A stretch of 64,000 nt of DNA from Cladosporium halotolerans (Eukaryota). Within the stretch, counting starts at the first letter, position 1. Each line of letters opens with the position of its first letter. Below the pieces are notes generated by a model. It saw only the letters and a list, made by a program, of their open reading frames with translations. It ran no database searches and had not been told where the DNA came from. Made by a program: the position numbers and the translations under genes. The stretch spans positions 186,001 through 250,000 of the forward strand of contig NW_027191477.1 in the NCBI RefSeq assembly GCF_011745625.1. Reading direction: 5' to 3'. This document shows, one piece after another, positions 9,672-43,600 of this stretch.

Positions 9672-10397
<726 letters not shown>

Positions 10398-30629: not shown

Positions 30630-33600
30630 ATGCAGCACGCTGGTCCCAGCGAAGAACCTACCAGCAACCCACCTGAACAACGCAGCTTCAAGACAAAAGC
30701 ATCTCGCTACTTCATTCGTACTCCCTCCTTTGCATCGTTCAGGTCGTCTCCGGCTGCTATCGAGACGAATAGCTGCCGTAGCGGGCAAGACACAAACACA
30801 AGCGTCAGCCGGCTCAAAAGGGTACAACGCAGCGTTTCTGCATTCGCCTCTAGATTGCCCCTGATCAACCGTACGCTCTGCCCTCTCCTGGCAACTTCCC
30901 TCCACCCACTGACCAGTGTGCAGGATATCGTTCCAGATCTCGAATGGAGTCTTCTGGCCCTGCTCCGGGGAAACGCTCGATCAGCCACCAACTCCCATCT
31001 ACCTTTAGACCAAGATGGCCGAGCACCGGTGGCCTTGACCATGTGCCAGCCAGCTCATACACGTTCGGCGAAGGCTCAAACGAGTACTTGCCTCCACGAC
31101 CAGTAATCGCACCACCACCCGCTTCCCTCCCACCGCAGCGAAAGCGGTCTGTCCGCTTCGCAGATCCAAGCCCTAGTCCCTTCGACGGATCTCAGAGCTA
31201 TCAAGACTTCGGCTCTAGTGACAGTGGAGAACTCCGCAGGAGCAGACTCGGACACCGTCTTTCGGAATGCTTTGAAGCTCTGAATGGCAAATTGAACATG
31301 ACGAACGGGACTGATACGGTTTTGCATCGGCAAAATGTGCGCGCAAGGCCCGCTGTTCCGTATATCGACACGGCTATGATCACAACGGGCAGACCGACAA
31401 GACCTCCGAGCACTGCTCCGTCTAGAGCAGCATCTGCGCAGTCCACTAGTGCTTCTCCTGTCAGCACTGCGTCGACTGCAGCAACCTCCTTCGGCTCATC
31501 TCCACGCTCGTTCTCCTCACCAAAACGCCTCGAAGCAGACGAGGGTCAACTCGTCGCCCGACTACTTTCACCTGGCGATGACGTGCTGCTTCCTCCCATC
31601 GAAGAGGACACCAGTCGATTCCTCCTCATCCCACAGCAAGACAGCGTCATCACAGCGAAACCATCAATCGCCACCGTCGAAGCCGCAGCAGCAGCGAAGA
31701 CCTTTCTCGAAACCCAATACAACAACTTGCTACACGAGCCAAGCTCTCCTCGCTCGATGCGTCGCAAACGCCTCGAACAGGATCTGTTTGACCTCAAGGT
31801 GGCTCATGAAGAGCGCGTCAGAGCTCGGTGCCAGTGGTTGCGTACGGAGAACGATCATCTGCGCCAGACGCGTGCGCTGAAGTCTAGCTCGATTGCTCGT
31901 CATGGCGTCAAAGGCATTTCTATCGCTGGCTACGACGTCGTCCGCGTGCTTGGTAAAGGCAGTTTCGGTGTGGTCAGGCTGGTGACTGAGCGGAGTCGGG
32001 CTCATGCAGAGCAGAAGGAGACTTCCAGCGTTGGCAACATCGATCGCAATGATTGCACGGTCAACAGGGCTCTGCCATGTGGGAAGCCATTATCCGACGT
32101 CTTCGCCATGAAAGTCATCCGCAAGTCTGAAATGCTGCGCGGCTGTCAGGAAGGTCACTTGCGAGCGGAGCGTGACTTCCTTGTCAATGCTGAGGGCTCC
32201 CGATGGGTTGTACCCCTAATTGCGAGCTTCCAGGACAATACCAACCTCTACCTCGTGATGGAGTACATGATCGGCGGCGACTTCCTGGGCCTACTGCTGC
32301 GAGAAGATGTGCTGGACGAGGCTGTCGCCAGGTAGTACGTGGCGGAAATGATCCTCTGCGTCGAAGAAGTGCACAAGATGAACTGGATCCATCGAGACAT
32401 CAAGCCGGACAACTTCCTGATCAGCGCTTCGGGGCATCTCAAAATATCCGATTTCGGACTGGCGTTCGACGGGCACTGGTCACACAGCCAGAAATACTAC
32501 ACCACCCAACGCAGCTACCTCATGGACAAGCTCGACATCAAAATCGCCGGAGACAGCCAGGACCTCGCCGAAGAGTCCAGCGCCGCCGACTTCGACGACG
32601 ACATCGCCACAACCCCCAGGCACAGCAAACGCGACCCCGAATCGCACGCCCGCCGCGAAGGCCTCCTCAACTACCGCAACCGCACCGAACGGCGCAAACT
32701 CGCCCGCAGCGTCGTCGGCACAAGCCAATACATGGCGCCCGAAGTGATCCTCGGCCACCCCTACGACGGCCGCTGCGACTGGTGGAGCATCGGCATCATC
32801 CTCTACGAGTGCCTCTACGGCCGCACGCCCTTCTTCAGCGAAAACCGGCAGCTGACCAAAGAGTCCATCGTCGCGCACCGCTCCACCCTCTCCTTCCCCC
32901 GCCACGACCGCTACTCCCGCCCCTCCAGCGACTCCCGCCTCTGGCTCCCGCCCCCCTCCAAGAGCGCCCTAGACCTCATGCGCGCCATCCTCGTCGACAA
33001 AGACGCCCGCCTCTCCTCGCGCCAGTACCGGCAGGCGCAGGGGCCGGGGCTCGCGCGCCGCGCCTCGAACCTGCGCCACGTGCACGCCAACGGCGCGGAC
33101 GAGATCAAGGCGCACGCCTTCTTCCGCGGCGTGCCGTGGGCGGGCCTGCACGCGCGCGCGCCGCCGTTCGTCCCGCGCGTGCGCGAGCGCCAGAGCATCG
33201 CCAAGTACTTCGAGGACGAGGCGGATATTGTCAGCGAGGAGTCGTCGCGGTATGAGAGCTGCGAGGGGGAGGGTGGGGTGGCTGGCGCGGAGAGCGAGAA
33301 GGCGGCGGTCGGCTTGCAGGGGCTGTCGGATGCGGAGTTCCGGAGGGTCCGGGAGCACTATGGCGCGGCTTATGGGAGGTGGAGGGTGGAGAGGGTTGCG
33401 TTTTTGCAGCAGCAGCGGCAGCAGGGTGAGGAGGAGACGGCGGGCTGTGGGGTGAGGAGAGAGCGCAAGAGGCCGCGGGACAAGGTGCTCCGGGACGTGG
33501 TGGTGGGCAAGAAGGTGATGGAGATGCGGAAGAGGAGGGCGTTTTTCGGTTACACGTATCGAAGGCCGAGGCCGGTTGTGTTGGAAGGCGGCGGGAGGAG

Positions 33601-33646
33601 GGGGAGGGTGACTGTTGCGGTTGTTGGGGAGGGTGGGGAGGGGTGA
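30630..33646 (+). CDS. AGC/NDR (Cbk1-related, PUK1/STK-21-like) Ser/Thr kinase; intron 30871-30923; single in-frame TAG at 32333-32335
   Basis: LGKGSFG, AMKVIRK, HLRAERDFL, EYMIGGDFL, then AVAR*YVAEM, HRDIKPDN, DFG, a long activation-loop insert, SVVGTSQYMAPE, CDWWSIG and C-terminal hydrophobic motif FFGYTYRR. Both halves are in the same frame. Confidence 0.88.
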
Positions 33647-36370
33647 AGGTTGAGTAGGATGATGGTTGAACGTAATTATCCGTTTTCGGCTCGGCTTTGG
33701 TTTTGGTGTTGATATGGCGTTATTGACTTATTCGGTGTTCGGTGTTCATACCCTGAGGAGTCGAGGTTCGTTCGAGGTGGGATTGTATAGAACCTAGGGT
33801 AGCGACAATTGTACAGATGACTCTATTCTCCAGAGTGTCAAGGGGTCGTATGCCTACACCGTATCCATCAAATAAGCTCGCAACAAACATAAAACTCGCC
33901 ATACCCTCGTCTGACGAGTAGATTACCGTTCGTTCGCTCCGTGAAGACATTGCATACCCGCGAAACCCCCTACCTAGACGCGTAGGCCTTTTACGGGACG
34001 ATGGAAGTTTTATGCAAACGATAGATACGGGCTCGTAGTTCTACTCAGAGCACTACGATCAGGATCGTTTGAGAAGCAGTGTCCGGACAATCGGTGCTGA
34101 AAGAGCAGAGATGGATGAGAACGGAAGGCCGTTTGGCTGCTCCTCTCTGGTCGGTGATGGACGTACTAGAGACAAAGTTCCGTTCTTTTACAAGCGGATG
34201 CAACAGAGTCGACGAATTTTGCGCGATCGCGTATGGGTTCGTGGTTTGACGGCCGTCATGTTCGGTGAGTGAGCGTTCAGAGATGGTGTGTGAAGAGCGT
34301 GGGATTGCGCTGTGCTGTCCTCAAGGGTCTATCGTGTCCCAGATTCTGTGCTGTCGGCCTTTTCACGCAAACCATTGGAGCGTACTGACGACTTCGATGG
34401 ATCGATTGACGAGCGCATCCGCGGCTCCCCTTCGGCCATATGTAAACATTGAGAGCGCCATCGAAAGTAGGACTCCAGAATCGCACGTCGCTTCCGTTCT
34501 CTGGTGTAACGTTGTTCACCACATTTGACTTTCGTGTCACTTCCATACGTACGATGACGCCTTGCCTGATTTTCGCGGAACGACGATGAGCGGCAGCTTG
34601 AGACAGCGATGGAACAGATGAGATGTCGAGAGTGGAGTACCTGTGCGAGGCGATGTAGACGAGAGGTGCATGCCAAGCCTTGCGCCGATCCGCTCCGCTG
34701 GGTTTATGCAAAGGAGATCTGCCCTAGACCTGAAGTAATGCAGAGCGCGGTCGCTGTCCGCCGTCATCTTGTTGCTCCCATCGTGTGTCTCAACGTCGAA
34801 AAGTGGAGCTTGAACGTGAAGGCTAGGAGGCGTCCATCGAAGGGCGCAGCAGTGTTGTGGATGCGAAGCTGGGCTGGTTGGCTCACGATGGCTCTGTTGG
34901 AGCAGTGTATTTTCTTCTTGCTGCTCTTTCCTCCATAGGGCAGGCACCGTGACGATTGATTTTGAGTCCCAGGCCCAGTCTTCCAGGGCCCGAGTTTGGA
35001 TCATGTATTTGTCCGTCAGTTTGTCCTCTGGACAGATCCAGGGATTCAGCGCGGAGACGGCCTGCGATCCATCTCTGCTTTGAATTGGTACCTGGCTGTG
35101 AGGCACGTGGAAGATGCAGCCACCGCAACTGTCTTTCGAGCACTGTTCGCCAGTGGCGTACGTACGCGCAATCTCAGCCTTAAGGATATTACTGATCAAT
35201 GACATCCTTGTGCAGATTGCCGCGGAGCATCGATAGAAGAATTAGTCGAATGCCATGGATTGTGGCGTCCAGGCTATTGTAGAGCGCCAGTATGCTTCCA
35301 TGCGCGATGACATGGTGGAAGATTCGGCGTCGCGGCCTGTAAAGCCAAAAGTGTATCTACAGGGCACGTATGCAGTCCGGGAGGTCGAGAATGGTTCTAT
35401 ACAGACTACAGACCCTGTTGCACAGGCATCGTGCTCGGAACTTCAACACCCACTCGGAACGGAGTCAAAGATGATCAATTGGACGACGCGTAAGAGATGC
35501 GGACGGGAAGGATGACGACGATGTTTTCCCCAGCGCCCTGGCCCGGCGGGCGAAGCTCAATCCGGAGCCGCAGAAGTTTAGGGCTCGCAACGGGCGCGGC
35601 TCTTGCTGCCTTCCGCCGGGCTCCGGGGGCTTCCTGACTTTCACTAACCTCGCGTTTCTGGGGGTTGAGCCACTGCACAACTGGCCCGCCGTTTTCATGT
35701 TGTCTTCGGGTGCACTGCGCCCGAGCGTGCTGACGGCCGCAGCGAGTGCCATCGGCAAAGCGATGCGATGCGATGCGATGCGAGGCACCGAATTCGCTGC
35801 ACGCATCACGCAGACGGCCAGCTCTCCTGGGCGTAAGCAGTGGTGAGACGGTACGACGATGGAGCGCGCATCTCTCGTGACGAGCGGAGATATCTGCAGC
35901 TGACCGTCCGTGGGGCGGGTGTCAGGCTCCAACCTTCCCGCCGGCCGCGCTTGGGTCGCCTGTCTCGGACGCTGAGACCCTCTGCTCCGAGTGCATAACA
36001 GCGGCTGCTGGAGCGATACACTTCCCATTCCTCGGGACTGCCAATCCCGTCGCTCTCCCAGCACGCCAGATCGTAGCGCAATCTGCACTTGGCGCAGCAG
36101 TCCAGAACATAGGTCCGTCTTCCACTAGCTGGCGCTGTCAAACGCTATCCGGTACATGGCGCTGGCGTCATAGGTGATTGTCTGCACTGCTTACCACAAC
36201 GGCCAAGAAGCTTTGTCAAAGCTGTGAGCTCCCGTTTGGGTGAGTTTGGAGCGCCCGTTGTGTGTGTGTTCATATACCTGCGTCGCAGGGCCCTCCTCTT
36301 CATACGTCTCTCCTCACCTCTATCTCCTCTGTTGCCCACCCTATCACCACACAAGACTCTCCGTGACGCC

Positions 36371-39300
36371 ATGTCGTCCACGGGCGGTATCATCCGCACC
36401 GCATCTGGTCGCCAGACCTATCTTCCAGATGGTCTGGACGAAAACGCACAGTTCTCTGGCAACGGCGACACCGTCTCAAGAACGACCAGCGATACCTTGA
36501 ACAACAATGCCTCTAACAGTGTCGCGCCGGCACCGGAGTCGGGCTACATCACCAGCGAAGGCAAGGAGGCCGCTGAAGACCCCATTGAGACGTCGAAAGT
36601 CGCAGACGACTCTTCCTCTGATGAGTTCATCGAGCCCATCAACGCTGCTGATGCTGGCACCCTCACCAAGATCGCAACTCAGCTTTCCAGGAACCAGTCC
36701 TTCTACGCACGCCGTGGTAGCTCGGTGGCAAACGATGGTCTCCAGCGTACCAATACTCTTGAGGGCATTCAGATGGGCTCCCCCGAACTCGATCCCAGCA
36801 GCCCGAAGTTCGATCTGTACAAATGGATCCGATTTACCATGCGCGCCATTGATGAGGAAGACATCAAGATCGCCCGCGCTGGTGTCACAATGAAGAATGT
36901 CACAGTGCGTGGCACTGGCTCAGCATTGAGCCTGCAGAACAACGTCGGCAGCACGCTGATGGCGCCACTGAGGGTCGGCGAGTTCTTCAACTTTGGCTCG
37001 AAGCCTACCAAGACCATTCTTCACGATTTCGACATTTTGATGAAGAGTGGCGAGATGCTCATCGTCCTGGGAAGACCAGGCTCTGGCTGCAGCACTCTAC
37101 TTAAAACTATGACTGGCGAGATGCACGGTCTTCAAGTCGACGAGCAGTCGACGGTTCACTACAACGGCATCCTTCAGCAACAGATGATGCGCGAGTTCAA
37201 GGGTGAGGTTGTTTACAACCAGGAGGTTGACAAACACTTCCCGTAAGTCTAGCATCTCTTGATTGACTCTCTGAGCTTTACTGATCTCCGCTAGGCACTT
37301 GACTGTTGGAGAGACTCTCGAGCACGCTGCGGCACTGCGTGCGCCGAGCCATCGTATCGAAGGCGTCTCGCGCCAGGAGTTTGTCAAGCACGTCACCCAG
37401 ATTGTCATGGCTGTGTATGGTCTCAGTCACACGTACAACACCAAGGTCGGCGACGACTTCGTCCGTGGCGTGTCAGGTGGCGAGCGCAAGCGTGTCAGTA
37501 TCGCCGAGATGGCACTCTCTGGCTCGCCATTTGCAGCCTGGGACAACTCCACTCGAGGTCTCGATTCCGCTACTGCTCTGACATTCACGAAGTCTCTTCG
37601 TCAGACTGCAAACCTGGTGGGCTCCTCCCACGCTGTTGCCATCTACCAGGCCAGTCAAGCTATCTACGATCTCTTTGACAAAGCTGTGGTCCTTTACGAG
37701 GGCAGACAGATCTTCTTTGGTCCTACCAAGCGCGCTAAGCAGTACTTTGAAGAAATGGGCTGGTATTGCCCACCCCGTCAGACTACTGGCGACTTCCTGA
37801 CTAGTGTCACCAACCCATCGGAACGCCAGGCAAGAGAAGGCTACGACAAGCAGGTGCCCCGAACACCGGACGAGTTCGAGGCATACTGGAGGCGCAGTCC
37901 GGATTACGCACAACTTCACAAAGAGATCCAAGCGCACGAGGAAGAATACCCAGTCGGTGACGCTGGCAAGCTCGAAGAGTTCCGCGCATCGAAGAAGGAT
38001 GCTCAGGCACAGCACACCAGACGCAAGTCGCCCTACGTCGTCTCAGTTCCGATGCAGATCAAGCTCAACATGAAACGAGCGGTGCAGCGTATCTGGAACG
38101 ATAAGGCGTCTACTTTCACCCCAATCATCGGCAACATCATCATGGCTTTGATCGTCGGCAGTGTCTTCTACGGTACACCGAACGCGACTGCGGGCTTCTT
38201 CGCTAAGGGATCTGTTCTGTTCTTCGCGGTCTTGCTCAACGCCCTCAGTGCCATCTCCGAAATCAACTCTCTCTATGCACAGCGGCCGATTGTGGAAAAG
38301 CACAAATCATATGCATTCTATCATCCTTCAACTGAGGTGTGTATCAGCTCACAATATTTGATTGGGTCCCTCATATCGCTAACAGCTTCCCCAGGCCATC
38401 GCCGGTATAGTCGTCGACATCCCGCTGAAATTCGCTCAAGCCGTCTGTTTCAATCTGATCATCTATTTCATGGCTGGACTTCGCCGAGAGCCTTCTCAGT
38501 TCTTCATCTTCTTCCTGATCGCGTACGTGGCAACCTTCGTCATGGCGGCCATTTTCCGCACCATGGCAGCCGTCACCAAGACCGTTTCTCAAGCAATGGC
38601 GCTCTCTGGTGTGATGGTACTCGCAATCGTCATCTATACTGGATTCGTCGTGCCTGTGAGCTACATGGGCGCATGGTTCTCCTGGATAAGATGGCTCAAT
38701 CCGCTCTTCTACGCCTTCGAAATCATGATCGCGAACGAGTTCCACGGCCGACAGTTCACCTGCTCGCAATTCGTCCCGGCCTACCCTTCTCTCACTGGCG
38801 ACTCGTTCATCTGCTCCTCGCGAGGCGCAGTTGCCGGCCAGCGTACCGTGTCTGGCGATGCGTTCATTGCGGAGCAGTACAGCTACTACTACTCGCACGT
38901 CTGGCGCAACTTTGGCATCCTGCTCGCTTTCCTCTTCGCTTTCCTGGCTCTCTACTTCATCGCTGTCGAGCTGAACTCCTCGACTAGCTCCACGGCTGAG
39001 GTGCTCGTCTTCCGCCGTGGCCACGCTCCCGCATACCTGACGAACGCGGACAAGCAATCCGACGCCGAGTCAGGCACGGCAGAGAAATCAGCCCAGTCTA
39101 CCGAAAAGGAAGGCGAGGACGTCAACGTCATCCCGCCGCAGACCGACATCTTCACCTGGCGCGACGTCACCTACGACATCGAGATCAAAGGCAACCCTCG
39201 CAGGCTGCTGGACAACGTCTCCGGCTGGGTCAAGCCCGGCACCCTCACCGCGCTCATGGGAACCAGCGGTGCCGGCAAAACGACCCTCCTCGACGTCCTC

Positions 39301-41220
39301 GCCCAGCGCACCTCTATGGGCGTTATCACCGGCGACATGCTCGTCAACGGCAAGCCGCTCGACTCCAGCTTCCAGCGCAAGACGGGCTACGTCCAACAGC
39401 AGGATCTCCACATGGCCACCGCTACCGTCCGCGAATCGCTTCGCTTTTCTGCTATGCTTCGCCAGCCGAAGAGCGTGAGCAAGAAGGAGAAGTACGACTA
39501 CGTCGAGGATGTGATCAAAATGCTCAACATGGAAGACTTCGCCGAGGCCGTTGTTGGTGTTCCCGGTGAGGGTCTGAACGTTGAGCAGCGCAAGCTTCTG
39601 ACGATTGGAGTGTAAGTGATCACCTTTTGATCTCGTCTTGGAAAAATAGAAATACTGACTTTTTCAGTGAACTCGCTGCCAAGCCGAAGTTGCTTTTGTT
39701 CTTGGACGAACCCACCAGTGGTCTGGACTCCCAGAGTTCGTGGGCTATCTGTGCATTCCTCCGCAAGCTTGCGGATAACGGCCAGGCTGTTCTCTGCACT
39801 ATTCACCAGCCTTCAGCTATTTTGTTTCAACAGTTTGATAGGCTTTTGTTCTTGCGCAAGGTGAGCAATCTTCACGTATACTGCTCTCAGCGCCTTGATG
39901 CTGACCAAAATTTAGGGCGGTCAAACTGTGTACTTCGGCGACATCGGACAAAACTCACGCACTCTCCTTGACTACTTCGCGAACAACGGCGCTAGACGCT
40001 GCGGTGACGACGAAAATCCCGCTGAGTACATGCTCGAGGTTGCTGGCGACAAGAACCACGACTGGTTTGAGACCTGGAAGGCCAGCGAGGAAGCTCGCGA
40101 GGTCCAACATGGCATTGATGAGATCGCTCGCGAGAAGTCTAACGTCAACGATAAGGACGATGACGAGAGCGCGCACTCCGAATTCGCCATGCCATTCCCT
40201 CAGCAGCTGGTCGAGGTCACCTACCGCACCTTCCAACAATACTGGCGCATGCCATCTTACATCCTCGCCAAATTCGGACTCAGCATCGCGGCTGGTATCT
40301 TCATCGGTTTCTCCTTCTACGACGCAGACACGAGTCAGCAGGGCATGCAGAACGTTCTCTTCTCCATCTTCATGGTCACCACCATCTTCACCACCTTAGT
40401 CAACCAGATCATGCCTCTCTTCGTCGACCAACGTTCCCTCTACGAAGTCCGCGAAAGGCCCAGCAAAGCCTACAGCTGGAAGGCCTTCTTCATCGCCAAC
40501 GTCATCGTCGAAATCCCCTACCAAATCGTCGCCGGCATCCTCACCTTCGCCTGCTTCTACTACCCCGTCGTCGGCGTCCAGAGCTCCGAGCGCCAGGCTC
40601 TCGTCCTCCTCTTTTGCATAGTCTTCTTCATCTACGCCTCCACCTTCGGCCACCTCTGCATCGCCGCCATGCCCGACGCCCAGACCGCCTCTGCAATCCT
40701 TACCCTCCTCTTCTCCATGACCCTCATCTTCTGCGGTGTCATGCAGACCCCCGACGCCCTCCCGGGCTTCTGGATCTTCATGTACCGCGTCTCGCCCCTC
40801 ACCTACTGGGTCGGCGGCATCGCAGCCGCCATGCTCTCCGGGCGCGAAGTCGTCTGCGCCGACGCAGAGGTCTCCGTCTTCGACCCGCCCGCCGGCCAGA
40901 CCTGCGAGGCCTACATGGCGCCGTACCTCGCGCAGGCGCCGGGGACGCTGCAGAACCCGTCCGCCACCGCCGACTGCCGCTACTGCGGGCTCAGCGTCGC
41001 GGACCAGTATCTCGGCGGCTCGAACATTTTCTGGGCGGACCGTTGGCGGAATTTCGGGCTCATCTGGGCCTACGTTGCGTTTAACATTGCGCTCGCGACG
41101 TTCTTGTATTATTTCTTTAGGGTGAGGAAGTCGAGTGCGAAGGGCAAGAGCGATAAGTTGCAGAAGTTGGGGTTTGGGCTTAAGTGGATTGTGAACAAGT
41201 TTTGGAAGAAGCAGCACTAA
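36371..41220 (+). CDS. Full-size PDR/ABCG multidrug transporter; introns 37243-37294, 38337-38394, 39612-39667, 39861-39915
   Basis: NBD1 Walker [23 protein letters not shown] and [12 protein letters not shown]2 [15 protein letters not shown] and [11 protein letters not shown]. Two TMDs ending in WRNFG. All introns keep frame. Confidence 0.95.
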
Positions 41221-41486
41221 AGAGGGTGTTTTTTTTTCTCTTTTTGTGTTGATAAAAAGATTGAGGTTTTCTTTGGGTCAAAAAGTGTTGGATATATCTT
41301 ATAATTAACATGTACAATTTTCGCCTGTTGAAGATATTCTGATTACCATCTCATGTGTCAATAAGCTTCTCAAAGAAACTTTCATATGTCGTTGGAGTAG
41401 AGCCACTGGTAGGTGACAAGTCGTTGCAGCTTCCAAGTCCGCGAAATCGCACGAGCCCCTTGTCAGATGAAGCCCTCCCGAGCGCC

Positions 41487-42959
41487 TCACACAACACAAA
41501 GCACCGTCGCAGCACTCAGCCAAGAAGGCGACCCCACCACACCCTCATCACGCGTAGTCTCAAGCCCAAACTCCATCTTCGGCCAAACCAACATGCGCTG
41601 CAACCGCGCATCGCCCCCATGATACTTATCCAAAAACATGCAAATCGCCTGCCCCTCCATCAAGCCACGCCGGTACAGCCACCACTGATACCGGTACAGC
41701 TTCGCATACCAGTACGCGACCATCAGCAGCGCCTTCGCGTCTTTCCGCGCCAGCAGGTCTTTCAGCGCCGGAGGCATGTGCATCATGAAGCCGAAGAACT
41801 CGGTGATATTGTTGCCGTCGCACGTCACATGCAGCAGGCGCGCGAGGCCCATGGCCGTCGTGTAATAAGGGTTCGCGCTCTGGTCAACAGCGTCTGGGCC
41901 GAGATCGAAGAAGTCGCTGAAATCGCGCGTCATGGCGACGCGCTCTTCGCGCGAGAAGTCTCTCGGCTCGAGCATCGGCCTGAACAGCTCGCCGTGGCCG
42001 TTCGAGACGTGTCGGAACGAGCTCCCGGGTCGTAAAGGGTTGGCGATGGCCCAGACGGCCTTCTTGCCGTCGGACATTTTCAGCTAGTCCAAGTCGGAGG
42101 GGTCGGCGGGGCGGAGGGGCCAGGCTTCGGAGGGCGAGCGGGCTTCGATGGTGGCGGATTGGATTGCGCCGAGGAGGGCGGCGGTGGCCCAGAGGGCGTC
42201 TTTGTCGCGCTCGTGGATGGGGGAGGTGAGCTTTTGTTGGAATTTGGAGGTCCCGCGACACCAGTGGGAGAGGATCGTGCGGGAGATTTGGGGCGAGTTG
42301 GAGAGGTAGGCGTCGTGGAGGAGGGTTATGGTTATGACGATGTGTTCTAGGAAGGGATACTGGTCCTGGGATCAGGAGCCGTTTAGAGGTGTAGACGGAT
42401 GGAGTGGACTTACGGTGCACGCCAACTGGAAGACTTGTCGTTGATAGATTCTGGCAGCCTGGTGTGTTCCAACGGACAGTACAGTCCGTTCATTGAACCT
42501 CTTCAGGATCTCCAGCTCTGCCATGCCGAAACAGAGACCGCCCCCACCATCTTCACCATCCGAGCTTGGCGGACTGGGCAAGCTGTTGATGTTGCCGACG
42601 ATCACGGCATTCTGGCCCATCGGGCGACACCTCGCCAGCTGCCGGCTCAGCGTCCTCTCCACAACCCCAAATGCTCTCCCGTCAATCCTCGTTCCCGGCT
42701 GTGCTGCAATAGCAGTGCTCGCCGGCTTATCGTTGAAGCTGAACGAGCTCTCGCCCGCGAAAGTCAATCCGGCAGCACTCCCTTCATACTCGCACTCGAT
42801 TCCAAATGCTTTGCACTTCGCGCACGCAGGCTTGCTCTCATCACACTTGACTCGCCGTAACTTGCACCCAGCACATCCACGTCGTGATTTCTTGTGTGCT
42901 CGGCGGCGACGGTGAGCTTCGTCTGGTTCTTTCGCGTTGGCGGGCTGTGAGGGCTTCAT
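41487..42959 (-). CDS. Zn(II)2Cys6 transcription factor (UPC2-like fungal family); intron 42360-42413; single in-frame TAG at 42084-42086
   Basis: HKKSRRGCAGCKLRRVKCDESKPACAKC...CEY. After the intron YPFLEHIVITITLLHD...DALWATAALLG...EAWPLRPADPSDLD*LKMSDGKKAVW runs in frame into ORF 41487-42077 (ALLMVAYWY, WWLYRR). Confidence 0.85.
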
Positions 42960-43600
42960 GGCTTCTCTTTCAAAGCTGGCCTTCGAGAGGGCGGATAGTT
43001 TTTGTGAGATCTCATCCTACCTCAATGGCGGCACGGCCTGATTTCTATATCTCTGATCGATTCTGAAGGATCATGAACGTGATGACAAGGCTAGCTCGCG
43101 GATACGAAGTGAGGTTAGCGCCGAATCCCGGAGGATTTAAGCGGAGATAGACGTTGGTTGATGTTGGAGTTGAGTCCTAGTTTGGGGTAGCTAGGGTTAG
43201 GGTTGGGGTACCGTCGTCCGACGCTGGTACCTTAAACATCGTATTGTAAGCCCAGCATTTATTCATGTGGCTTGGCGATCACATCCTACATTCTGAATCA
43301 GCAAATCATAATGATCAGCTGCCTTTGCGGGGATATGGATTGTCCCGTGGCGTCGAATTGTGTTGATTAGTGAAATCCTCTCTCCAGCTTCACCCGGTCA
43401 TTGATTCCGTTCGTCAACACCACAATAATCGCAGAAAGCAAGTAACGCGGAACGTCCAATTTTGCGAAAACTCGATAGGTACAGCTTATAGGCATACTTC
43501 AATTGTATATCGTTCCAAAACCTCGCCAGCAGAATCGTAACTCAATCTTTCATAGCTCATCGGTCCAACGTTGCTCGTCTGCGGACATCGTCTCAGTAGT

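Follow-up and report, generated by a model that had tools for sequence, protein, structure and literature searches.

Tryptophan-position TAG codons in a kinase gene and a transcription factor gene

The stretch of Cladosporium halotolerans DNA analyzed here (64,000 nucleotides, hereafter the window) contains a gene for an NDR/AGC-type protein kinase of a PUK1-like family on the forward strand (30944..33649, Pkinase E 8.7e-49) and a gene for a Zn2Cys6 transcription factor on the reverse strand (41487..42959, Zn_clus E 2.4e-09). The two genes sit on either side of a PDR-type ABC transporter gene, and each is interrupted by an in-frame TAG at a tryptophan position. A prior sequence-only reading of the window had grouped both stops into one system of stage-specific messenger RNA (mRNA) editing, or UAG readthrough, that gates regulators. 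The domain matches bear out its description of the two genes as regulatory, and the evidence presented below points to the kinase TAG as a maintained stop that is probably recoded. The transcription factor TAG has to be considered separately.

In a protein search, the top named relatives of the kinase are from Cladosporium fusiforme (75%), Elasticomyces, Teratosphaeria, Cercospora and Zymoseptoria, and the N-terminal part of the transcription factor is 100% identical to the Cladosporium halotolerans protein P0311. The window therefore derives from C. halotolerans or a very close relative, which places it in the Cladosporiales and confirms the Dothideomycete origin that the sequence-only reading had entertained as a condition.

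The kinase gene forms a single frame of about 900 codons, taken from the first ATG of the frame, which is open except for one TAG and terminates with TGA. The TAG (32333..32335, context gcc agg TAG tac gtg gcg) occupies the tryptophan codon of an ARWYVAEM motif that precedes the HRD catalytic loop. Among 120 aligned homologues, this column holds Trp in 104 sequences, Phe in 6 and His in 1, the remaining 9 rows (4 artefactual Tyr and 5 gaps) being gene models that skip the site, as expected from the earlier claim of an internal TAG at a Trp position. The DNA as it stands truncates the message after 463 codons, before the catalytic loop, and the unrecoded product would be an inactive fragment.

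We also counted in-frame stops flanked by at least 60 open codons on either side. The sequence-only reading had found two internal stops in about 20 modeled genes. The census returned 111 such stops (61 TGA, 31 TAG and 19 TAA), and a Pfam domain crosses the stop at 32333 and no other. The census overlooks genes without domains, since the C-terminal part of the transcription factor has no Pfam model.

The kinase TAG recurs among relatives and is followed by constrained sequence

One scan of metagenome contigs provided 80 loci orthologous to the kinase, and the TAG site was located in 76 of them. The codon at this site is TGG in 53 loci, TAG in 17, TTC in 5 and TTT in 1, and neither TGA nor TAA is found in any of the 76. 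On a tree of 77 DNA-derived sequences, at least six changes between TAG and non-TAG are needed, and at least seven in a second run. The TAG copies include Cladosporium-like loci (L001-L006 and L016, at 84-88% to C. fusiforme, itself TGG), a Teratosphaeriaceae-like locus (L011), a Dothideales-like locus (L017, at 85% to Neodothiora), Pleosporales-like loci (L029, L043, L049 and L058), an unplaced pair (L013 and L014) and a copy from a distant lineage (L070). The presence of the same TAG in 17 independent metagenome contigs disposes of the caveat that the kinase stop might be a strain-specific lesion or an assembly error.

The reading frame is preserved on both sides of the stop. Loci L001-L006 have 440-578 open codons upstream and about 469 downstream, and the corresponding values are 505 and 457 for L013 and 417 and 454 for L014; the shorter downstream frames stop where intron-bearing TGG relatives do. 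Apart from TAGs at other Trp sites, no frameshift or additional stop was detected in the TAG copies. Among these copies, the median ratio of nonsynonymous to synonymous divergence (dN/dS) is 0.021 over the 60 codons that precede the stop (58 of 152 pairs were usable) and 0.048 over the 62 codons that follow (69 of 152 pairs), the latter segment comprising the catalytic loop and the DFG motif. Since dS is mostly between 0.8 and more than 2, with synonymous sites near or beyond saturation, such low ratios indicate that translation of the region beyond the stop continued all the while the TAG lineages diverged. Taken at the level of sequence, these observations strongly support a kinase TAG that selection maintains and that is somehow bypassed.

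The TAG copies could instead be pseudogenes at an early stage, a dispensable kinase having lost its function again and again. G-to-A substitution at TGG is a common mutation, and the family does contain one clear non-TAG stop: two identical Friedmanniomyces-like contigs (L009 and L012) carry a TGA at an Arg codon 123 codons past the Trp site (NYRNRTER-stop-RLARSVVG), where their close relative L018 is open. This is the only non-TAG internal stop that we found in the kinase coding sequence, and it looks like ordinary decay of a single copy, which implies that plain decay does occur in this family as well. Decay is nevertheless a very unlikely account of the TAG copies, given the post-stop dN/dS of 0.048 at saturated synonymous sites, their otherwise intact frames and the confinement of TAG, the sole stop type at the affected positions, to four Trp codons.

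TAG occurs at four Trp codons of the kinase family

The second affected position is the first Trp of a CDWWS motif, encoded in the window by an intact TGGTGG at 32780..32785 (forward strand; computed from an offset of +149 codons). This Trp codon is TAG (TAGTGG) in 6 of 70 motif-bearing loci (L017, L044, L046, L050, L070 and L075), which requires at least five changes on the tree, and both L017 and L070 combine it with a TAG at the site interrupted in the window. The two other positions are the Trp of an SRWVVPL motif, which is TAG in L019, and a conserved N-terminal Trp, which is TAG in L075 in addition to its CDWWS TAG. Across the four Trp codons, TGA is found at none. From our reading of the trees and groupings, at least 11 lineage events have occurred, all of them to TAG, an outcome with p ~5e-4 if TGG-to-TAG and TGG-to-TGA changes were equally likely and tolerated. 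TAGs that persist at four Trp codons across at least four Dothideomycete groups are hard to explain unless UAG is read as sense in the kinase message.

We take the D-W-W-S motif to lie in kinase subdomain IX, following textbook kinase anatomy. The study describing edited kinase stops in Sordariomycetes places the edited UAGUAG of PUK1 in the "ninth subdomain" and gives UAGUGG there for Neurospora crassa (PMC4817773). Because both are assigned to subdomain IX, we infer that the first Trp of CDWWS corresponds to the PUK1/stk-21 site edited in Sordariomycetes; by our own arithmetic, the site falls at nucleotide 1831 in PUK1 and at about 1838 in the window kinase. The six related loci with TAGTGG at DWW thus carry the pattern described there for N. 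crassa.

The same source reports that kinase UAGs are edited to UGG in perithecia for PUK1 (FGRRES_01058) of Fusarium graminearum, stk-21 (NCU03242) of N. crassa and FVEG_01191 (PMC4817773). The window gene resembles PUK1 in its size (about 2.7 kb), in a TAG at a Trp of the kinase domain, in an annotation that relies on a false intron (see below) and in variation between TAG and TGG at one site among species. It differs from PUK1 in that its stop lies at another Trp (ARWY, 149 codons upstream), its own DWW being TGGTGG, and in that the host is a Dothideomycete, a class for which editing has not been reported; the likeness is indirect and consists in gene size, kinase type and the DWW of subdomain IX.

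The CDWWS TAGs are located in a predicted hairpin loop, but 35 of 47 unique TGG sequences likewise leave the central base unpaired, and this hairpin may predate the stop or be imposed by the codons themselves. Separately, we observed that a stem (GAUGC/GCAUC) around CDWWS is predicted in most copies of the 70 loci, TAG or TGG alike (window ~32760-32800).

Nine public kinase models skip the Trp codon, apparently through a false intron

Immediately after the first two bases of the kinase TAG, the window contains a 90-nucleotide stretch (32335..32424, forward strand) with splice-like ends, GTACGT...CAG, which encodes the conserved HRDIKPDN. Nine of the 120 public kinase models skip the Trp codon (P0017, P0022, P0024, P0025, P0028, P0029, P0040, P0060 and P0082). 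They come from Teratosphaeria nubilosa, Baudoinia, Cryoendolithus, two Zasmidium, Dothistroma, Zymoseptoria, Polychaeton and one Friedmanniomyces copy; Zymoseptoria tritici and Dothistroma septosporum, both plant pathogens, are among the species concerned. These models lose 13-54 residues around the Trp codon, and several of them lose the HRD catalytic loop.

Four of the skipping models (Zymoseptoria, Dothistroma and two Zasmidium) read ...VAR/KY joined directly to xSGHLKISD. Splicing the window in the same manner, with GTACGT...CAG removed between TA and C, yields a joint of this type, and since the Y-to-xSGHL joint requires T-A-G-T in the DNA, a TAG is implied in these four genomes as well. 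The skipped stretch is thus apparently a false intron placed to dodge an in-frame stop, and automated annotation hid the PUK1 stop in the same way (PMC4817773).

That the kinase stop resides in a real 90-nucleotide intron, as several annotations assume, is hardly credible. The splice-like signals do exist in the window and nine public models leave the region out, but the 90 nucleotides encode, in frame, the near-invariant catalytic loop, and their removal would leave the kinase without it. The GTACGT donor is not kept either, as the TAG copies read TAGTACAT, TAGTATCT or TAGTATGT at this position. Public models of the PUK1-like kinase in several plant pathogens would therefore be wrong, the false intron having dropped the catalytic loop.

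Predicted hairpins around the two stops

The kinase stop is enclosed in a predicted hairpin (32325..32345, forward strand) with a 6-base-pair stem (UCGCCA/UGGCGG) and a 9-nucleotide loop, GGUAGUACG, that contains the UAG. The transcription factor stop is in a predicted hairpin (42070..42092, reverse strand) with a 6-base-pair stem (UUGGAC/GUCCGA) and an 11-nucleotide loop that opens with the UAG. At both sites, the A that would be edited is unpaired in the hairpin loop in the minimum free energy and in the centroid folds, in agreement with the placement originally claimed. Neither fold outperforms shuffled sequences, however: over 61 nucleotides, an equally good fold is reached by 42 of 200 shuffles for the kinase and by 77 of 200 for the transcription factor, and over 41 nucleotides by 28 and 18 of 200, respectively, with z-scores for both hairpins between -0.2 and -1.45. 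The stems could therefore be chance on the evidence of the window alone.

Comparison of relatives is more informative for the kinase. The TAG copies keep a 5-base-pair stem, between arms at -8..-4 and +6..+10, that puts the UAG into a 9-nucleotide loop. At least four contiguous pairs between these arms are formed by 15 of the 17 unique sequences with TAG, by 11 of the 37 with TGG and by 1 of 4 with TTY (raw Fisher p 8e-5 for TAG versus TGG), and compensatory swaps from GCCA/UGGC to GCGA/UCGC have occurred in separate clades. Of the folds, 16 of 17 with TAG leave the central A or G unpaired, compared with 18 of 37 with TGG (raw Fisher p 0.002). After correction for kinship, the comparison of stems reduces to only four independent pairs, with contrasts amounting to 1.8 in the same direction, 0.1 in the opposite direction and 2.1 without difference (sign test p >=0.25). 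The association between TAG and stem is accordingly suggestive and falls short of being established, because the sequences compared are related.

A-to-I editing as the most probable mode of recoding

We propose, with a probability of roughly 0.55, that the kinase stop is maintained and recoded, most likely by adenosine-to-inosine (A-to-I) editing of UAG to UIG, which would be read as Trp. In this model, selection would keep a premature TAG at Trp positions in the PUK1-like NDR/AGC kinase family, and the A of the UAG, in its 9-nucleotide hairpin loop, would be deaminated to inosine at some stage of the life cycle. By analogy with Sordariomycetes, the enzyme would be the tRNA-deaminase (Tad2/Tad3) complex with a cofactor, and the stage would be sexual development. 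UIG would then be decoded as Trp to give the full-length kinase. As the unedited message would specify the truncated product and the edited one the full-length kinase, the stop would act as a stage gate.

We rank editing first because five features combine here as in the published signature of restorative editing in Sordariomycetes: an internal stop at Trp that is UAG and never UGA, a U before and a G after the A, a predicted loop position, and switching between TAG and TGG among species with constrained sequence downstream. Both window TAGs share the U at -1 and the G at +1 that the editing triplet prefers. Fungal editing prefers U at -1 (85.7%), a purine (A or G) at +1 and an A located within a hairpin loop (62% of sites; PMC4817773). 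The substrates of Tad2-Tad3-Ame1 are described in PMC11087585 as having U-A in a hairpin loop, as in the tRNA anticodon loop, and orthologues of Ame1 (DUF726) as being widespread in ascomycetes. The U-A of the window sites is likewise in a predicted hairpin loop, which makes this complex the candidate enzyme; we infer the editing from the pattern of the stops, and the enzyme and stage by analogy.

A second parallel is provided by the 71 F. graminearum "PSC (premature stop codon) pseudogenes" with restorative editing, in which TAG derives from TGG and has originated repeatedly and independently at one site (PMC10776026). As in that set, the stop here has been gained and lost independently several times, appears favored over the sense codon in some lineages and affects regulatory targets. 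In contrast, the stops of that set were traced to nodes within Sordariomycetes, and the sites described here are outside the set, except for DWW if the correspondence drawn above holds. For some of the F. graminearum sites, Qi et al. noted stops in single species of other classes, where editing is "yet to be determined" (PMC10776026).

Programmed translational readthrough would be another way to obtain some full-length kinase, by insertion of a near-cognate residue at a low rate with the RNA unchanged. Programmed readthrough in fungi bypasses a stop to produce extended isoforms, typically at a natural terminator and often at UGA followed by C. The window resembles these cases in that a stop would be bypassed to make a longer protein and differs from them in having an internal UAG, at a catalytic-domain Trp, as the stop, followed by U and with structure around it. 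Readthrough would also explain the conserved downstream frame, and it has to be kept as a reading because some lineages have the aromatic Phe at the kinase site (6 of 76 loci and 6 of 120 proteins), so that a Tyr supplied by readthrough might function there. The base following the kinase stop is U and not a purine, which also agrees with readthrough. Of the three stops, UGA leaks most readily and is the one taken for Trp in near-cognate decoding, but the four Trp sites show TAG and never TGA in at least 11 lineage events. Moreover, the conserved structure encloses the stop instead of sitting downstream of it, the two TAGs of L017 and L070 would compound the low rate and the invariant Trp of DWW is also affected. 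On balance, we consider readthrough unlikely.

Several observations weigh against editing. Besides the folds that shuffles equal, the uncertain stem association after kinship correction, the decaying L009/L012 copies and the tolerance of Phe, or possibly Tyr, at the kinase site, we know of no sexual stage for C. halotolerans. The RNA matches were all metatranscriptome contigs with a share of <=0.20; the two placed on 30900-43100 (X18 and X20) cover 36340-41304 alone, and neither lies over the kinase or the transcription factor. The Ame1-Tad3 editing system is inferred to have arisen in Sordariomycetes (PMC11087585), with a separate origin in Pezizomycetes, and Aspergillus nidulans and Botrytis cinerea showed no genome-wide editing in their fruiting bodies (PMC11156358). 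Our search of titles and abstracts returned no report of editing in Dothideomycetes.

If A-to-I editing of the kinase message is correct, it would be the first indication of A-to-I mRNA editing in Dothideomycetes. We regard as possible, at somewhat less than even odds, the wider proposition that Dothideomycetes and at least one further unplaced lineage possess working UAG-to-UGG mRNA editing, which either predates the Sordariomycete Ame1-Tad3 innovation or was invented separately, with the PUK1-family kinase as an ancient and repeatedly re-targeted substrate. Under that wider proposition, even "asexual" molds such as Cladosporium would retain a developmental program that editing unlocks.

Mutational damage, codon reassignment and sequence error

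The change from TGG to TAG is a TpG-to-TpA change and as such the signature of repeat-induced point mutation (RIP), a caveat that had been attached to both stops at the outset. The indices computed around the two genes are normal: TpA/ApT is 0.52 for the kinase and 0.42 for the transcription factor, (CpA+TpG)/(ApC+GpT) is 1.19 and 1.29, and the GC content is 0.61 and 0.59, respectively, so that the caveat does not hold for the kinase. A reassignment of TAG to Trp is contradicted by TGG:TAG ratios of 10:1 in the kinase and 9:1 in the transcription factor, by the lack of an internal TAG in the spliced ABC transporter and by a UBC4-like gene whose last exon ends ...TRKYAI followed by a terminal TAG (10395-10397). 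The sequence-only reading had dismissed reassignment on the grounds that housekeeping genes of the window end in TAG; its conclusion stands, and its grounds were recovered for the UBC4-like gene, while searches of the window with C-terminal motifs of RPL42, fimbrin and FEN1 returned no usable terminal exon. A sequencing or assembly error is countered by the 17 independent contigs with the kinase TAG and by the public model P0311, which ends at the transcription factor TAG. Taken together, RIP damage, reassignment and error retain a practically negligible probability.

The transcription factor TAG is confined to one species

The transcription factor gene consists of exon 1 (42959-42414), a 54-nucleotide intron (42413-42360, GTAAGT...CAG) and exon 2 (42359-41487), all on the reverse strand and spliced according to P0311, and it terminates with TGA. 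Its in-frame TAG (42084..42086, reverse strand, context ttg gac TAG ctg aaa atg) replaces the invariant Trp of a DLDWLKMSDGKK motif. Among 150 representative homologues, 148 have Trp in this column, one has Phe and one begins after the site, and the earlier assignment of this stop to a Trp position was thus accurate. In a separate set of 48 closer relatives, Trp is present in all 45 that cover the site, C. fusiforme (69% identity) included, and the other three rows do not reach it.

The transcription factor TAG is therefore species-specific, and this distribution, which counts against extending the editing model to this gene, leaves its grouping with the kinase TAG as one system unproven. Of the original hypothesis of editing or readthrough, the kinase as a maintained, recoded stop is retained, and the transcription factor, with a TAG in one species, is undecided. 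Because the stop is confined to one species, it could be either a young edited site or a plain nonsense mutation, and we rate the two as about equally likely.

A recent nonsense mutation would have killed the gene or shortened its protein to a form that still has the Zn2Cys6 DNA-binding part, and we give it an even chance. The public model P0311 (273 residues) ends at the TAG, and the local hairpin is not better than shuffles, both as would be expected. In the other direction, 198 codons after the stop are still open, and a downstream piece, P0121, is 99% identical to the window and is represented by five member sequences on four contigs, although so low a divergence proves little. These sequences do not prove that a TAG is present there, because P0121 is an exon without an upstream Met. 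The combination of UAG, an invariant Trp and a predicted loop also takes the same local form as at the kinase site 9.7 kb away, which would fit a young edited site.

Gene neighborhood and other features of the window

The PDR-type ABC transporter gene between the two regulators (36371..41220, forward strand) ends in TAA. Four short GT..AG introns (37243-37294, 38335-38392, 39612-39667 and 39859-39913) were confirmed by RNA contigs from two metatranscriptome studies, and splicing at these positions gives one open frame without an internal stop. The order kinase, transporter, transcription factor is also found in C. fusiforme (Q7P37_003322 and Q7P37_003324), which has Trp at the corresponding position in both of its genes.

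DNA contigs from two runs labeled as other organisms (X4 and X5) align with this neighborhood; they span the transcription factor TAG and do not extend over the 5' half of the kinase. Across the transcription factor (40634-43100), they differ from the window at 7 (X4) and 5 (X5) positions per ~2.4 kb, and over the preceding 7 kb (33631-40636) by about 190 base differences and about 29 gaps, so that similarity shifts abruptly near 40.6-40.8 kb. Finally, the segment 24000-30000, close to which the stuA frameshift noted in the sequence-only reading may be situated, has a GC content of 0.66 versus a window mean of 0.57 and contains many overlapping long open frames on both strands, with no Pfam match in the census of stop-flanking sequences.

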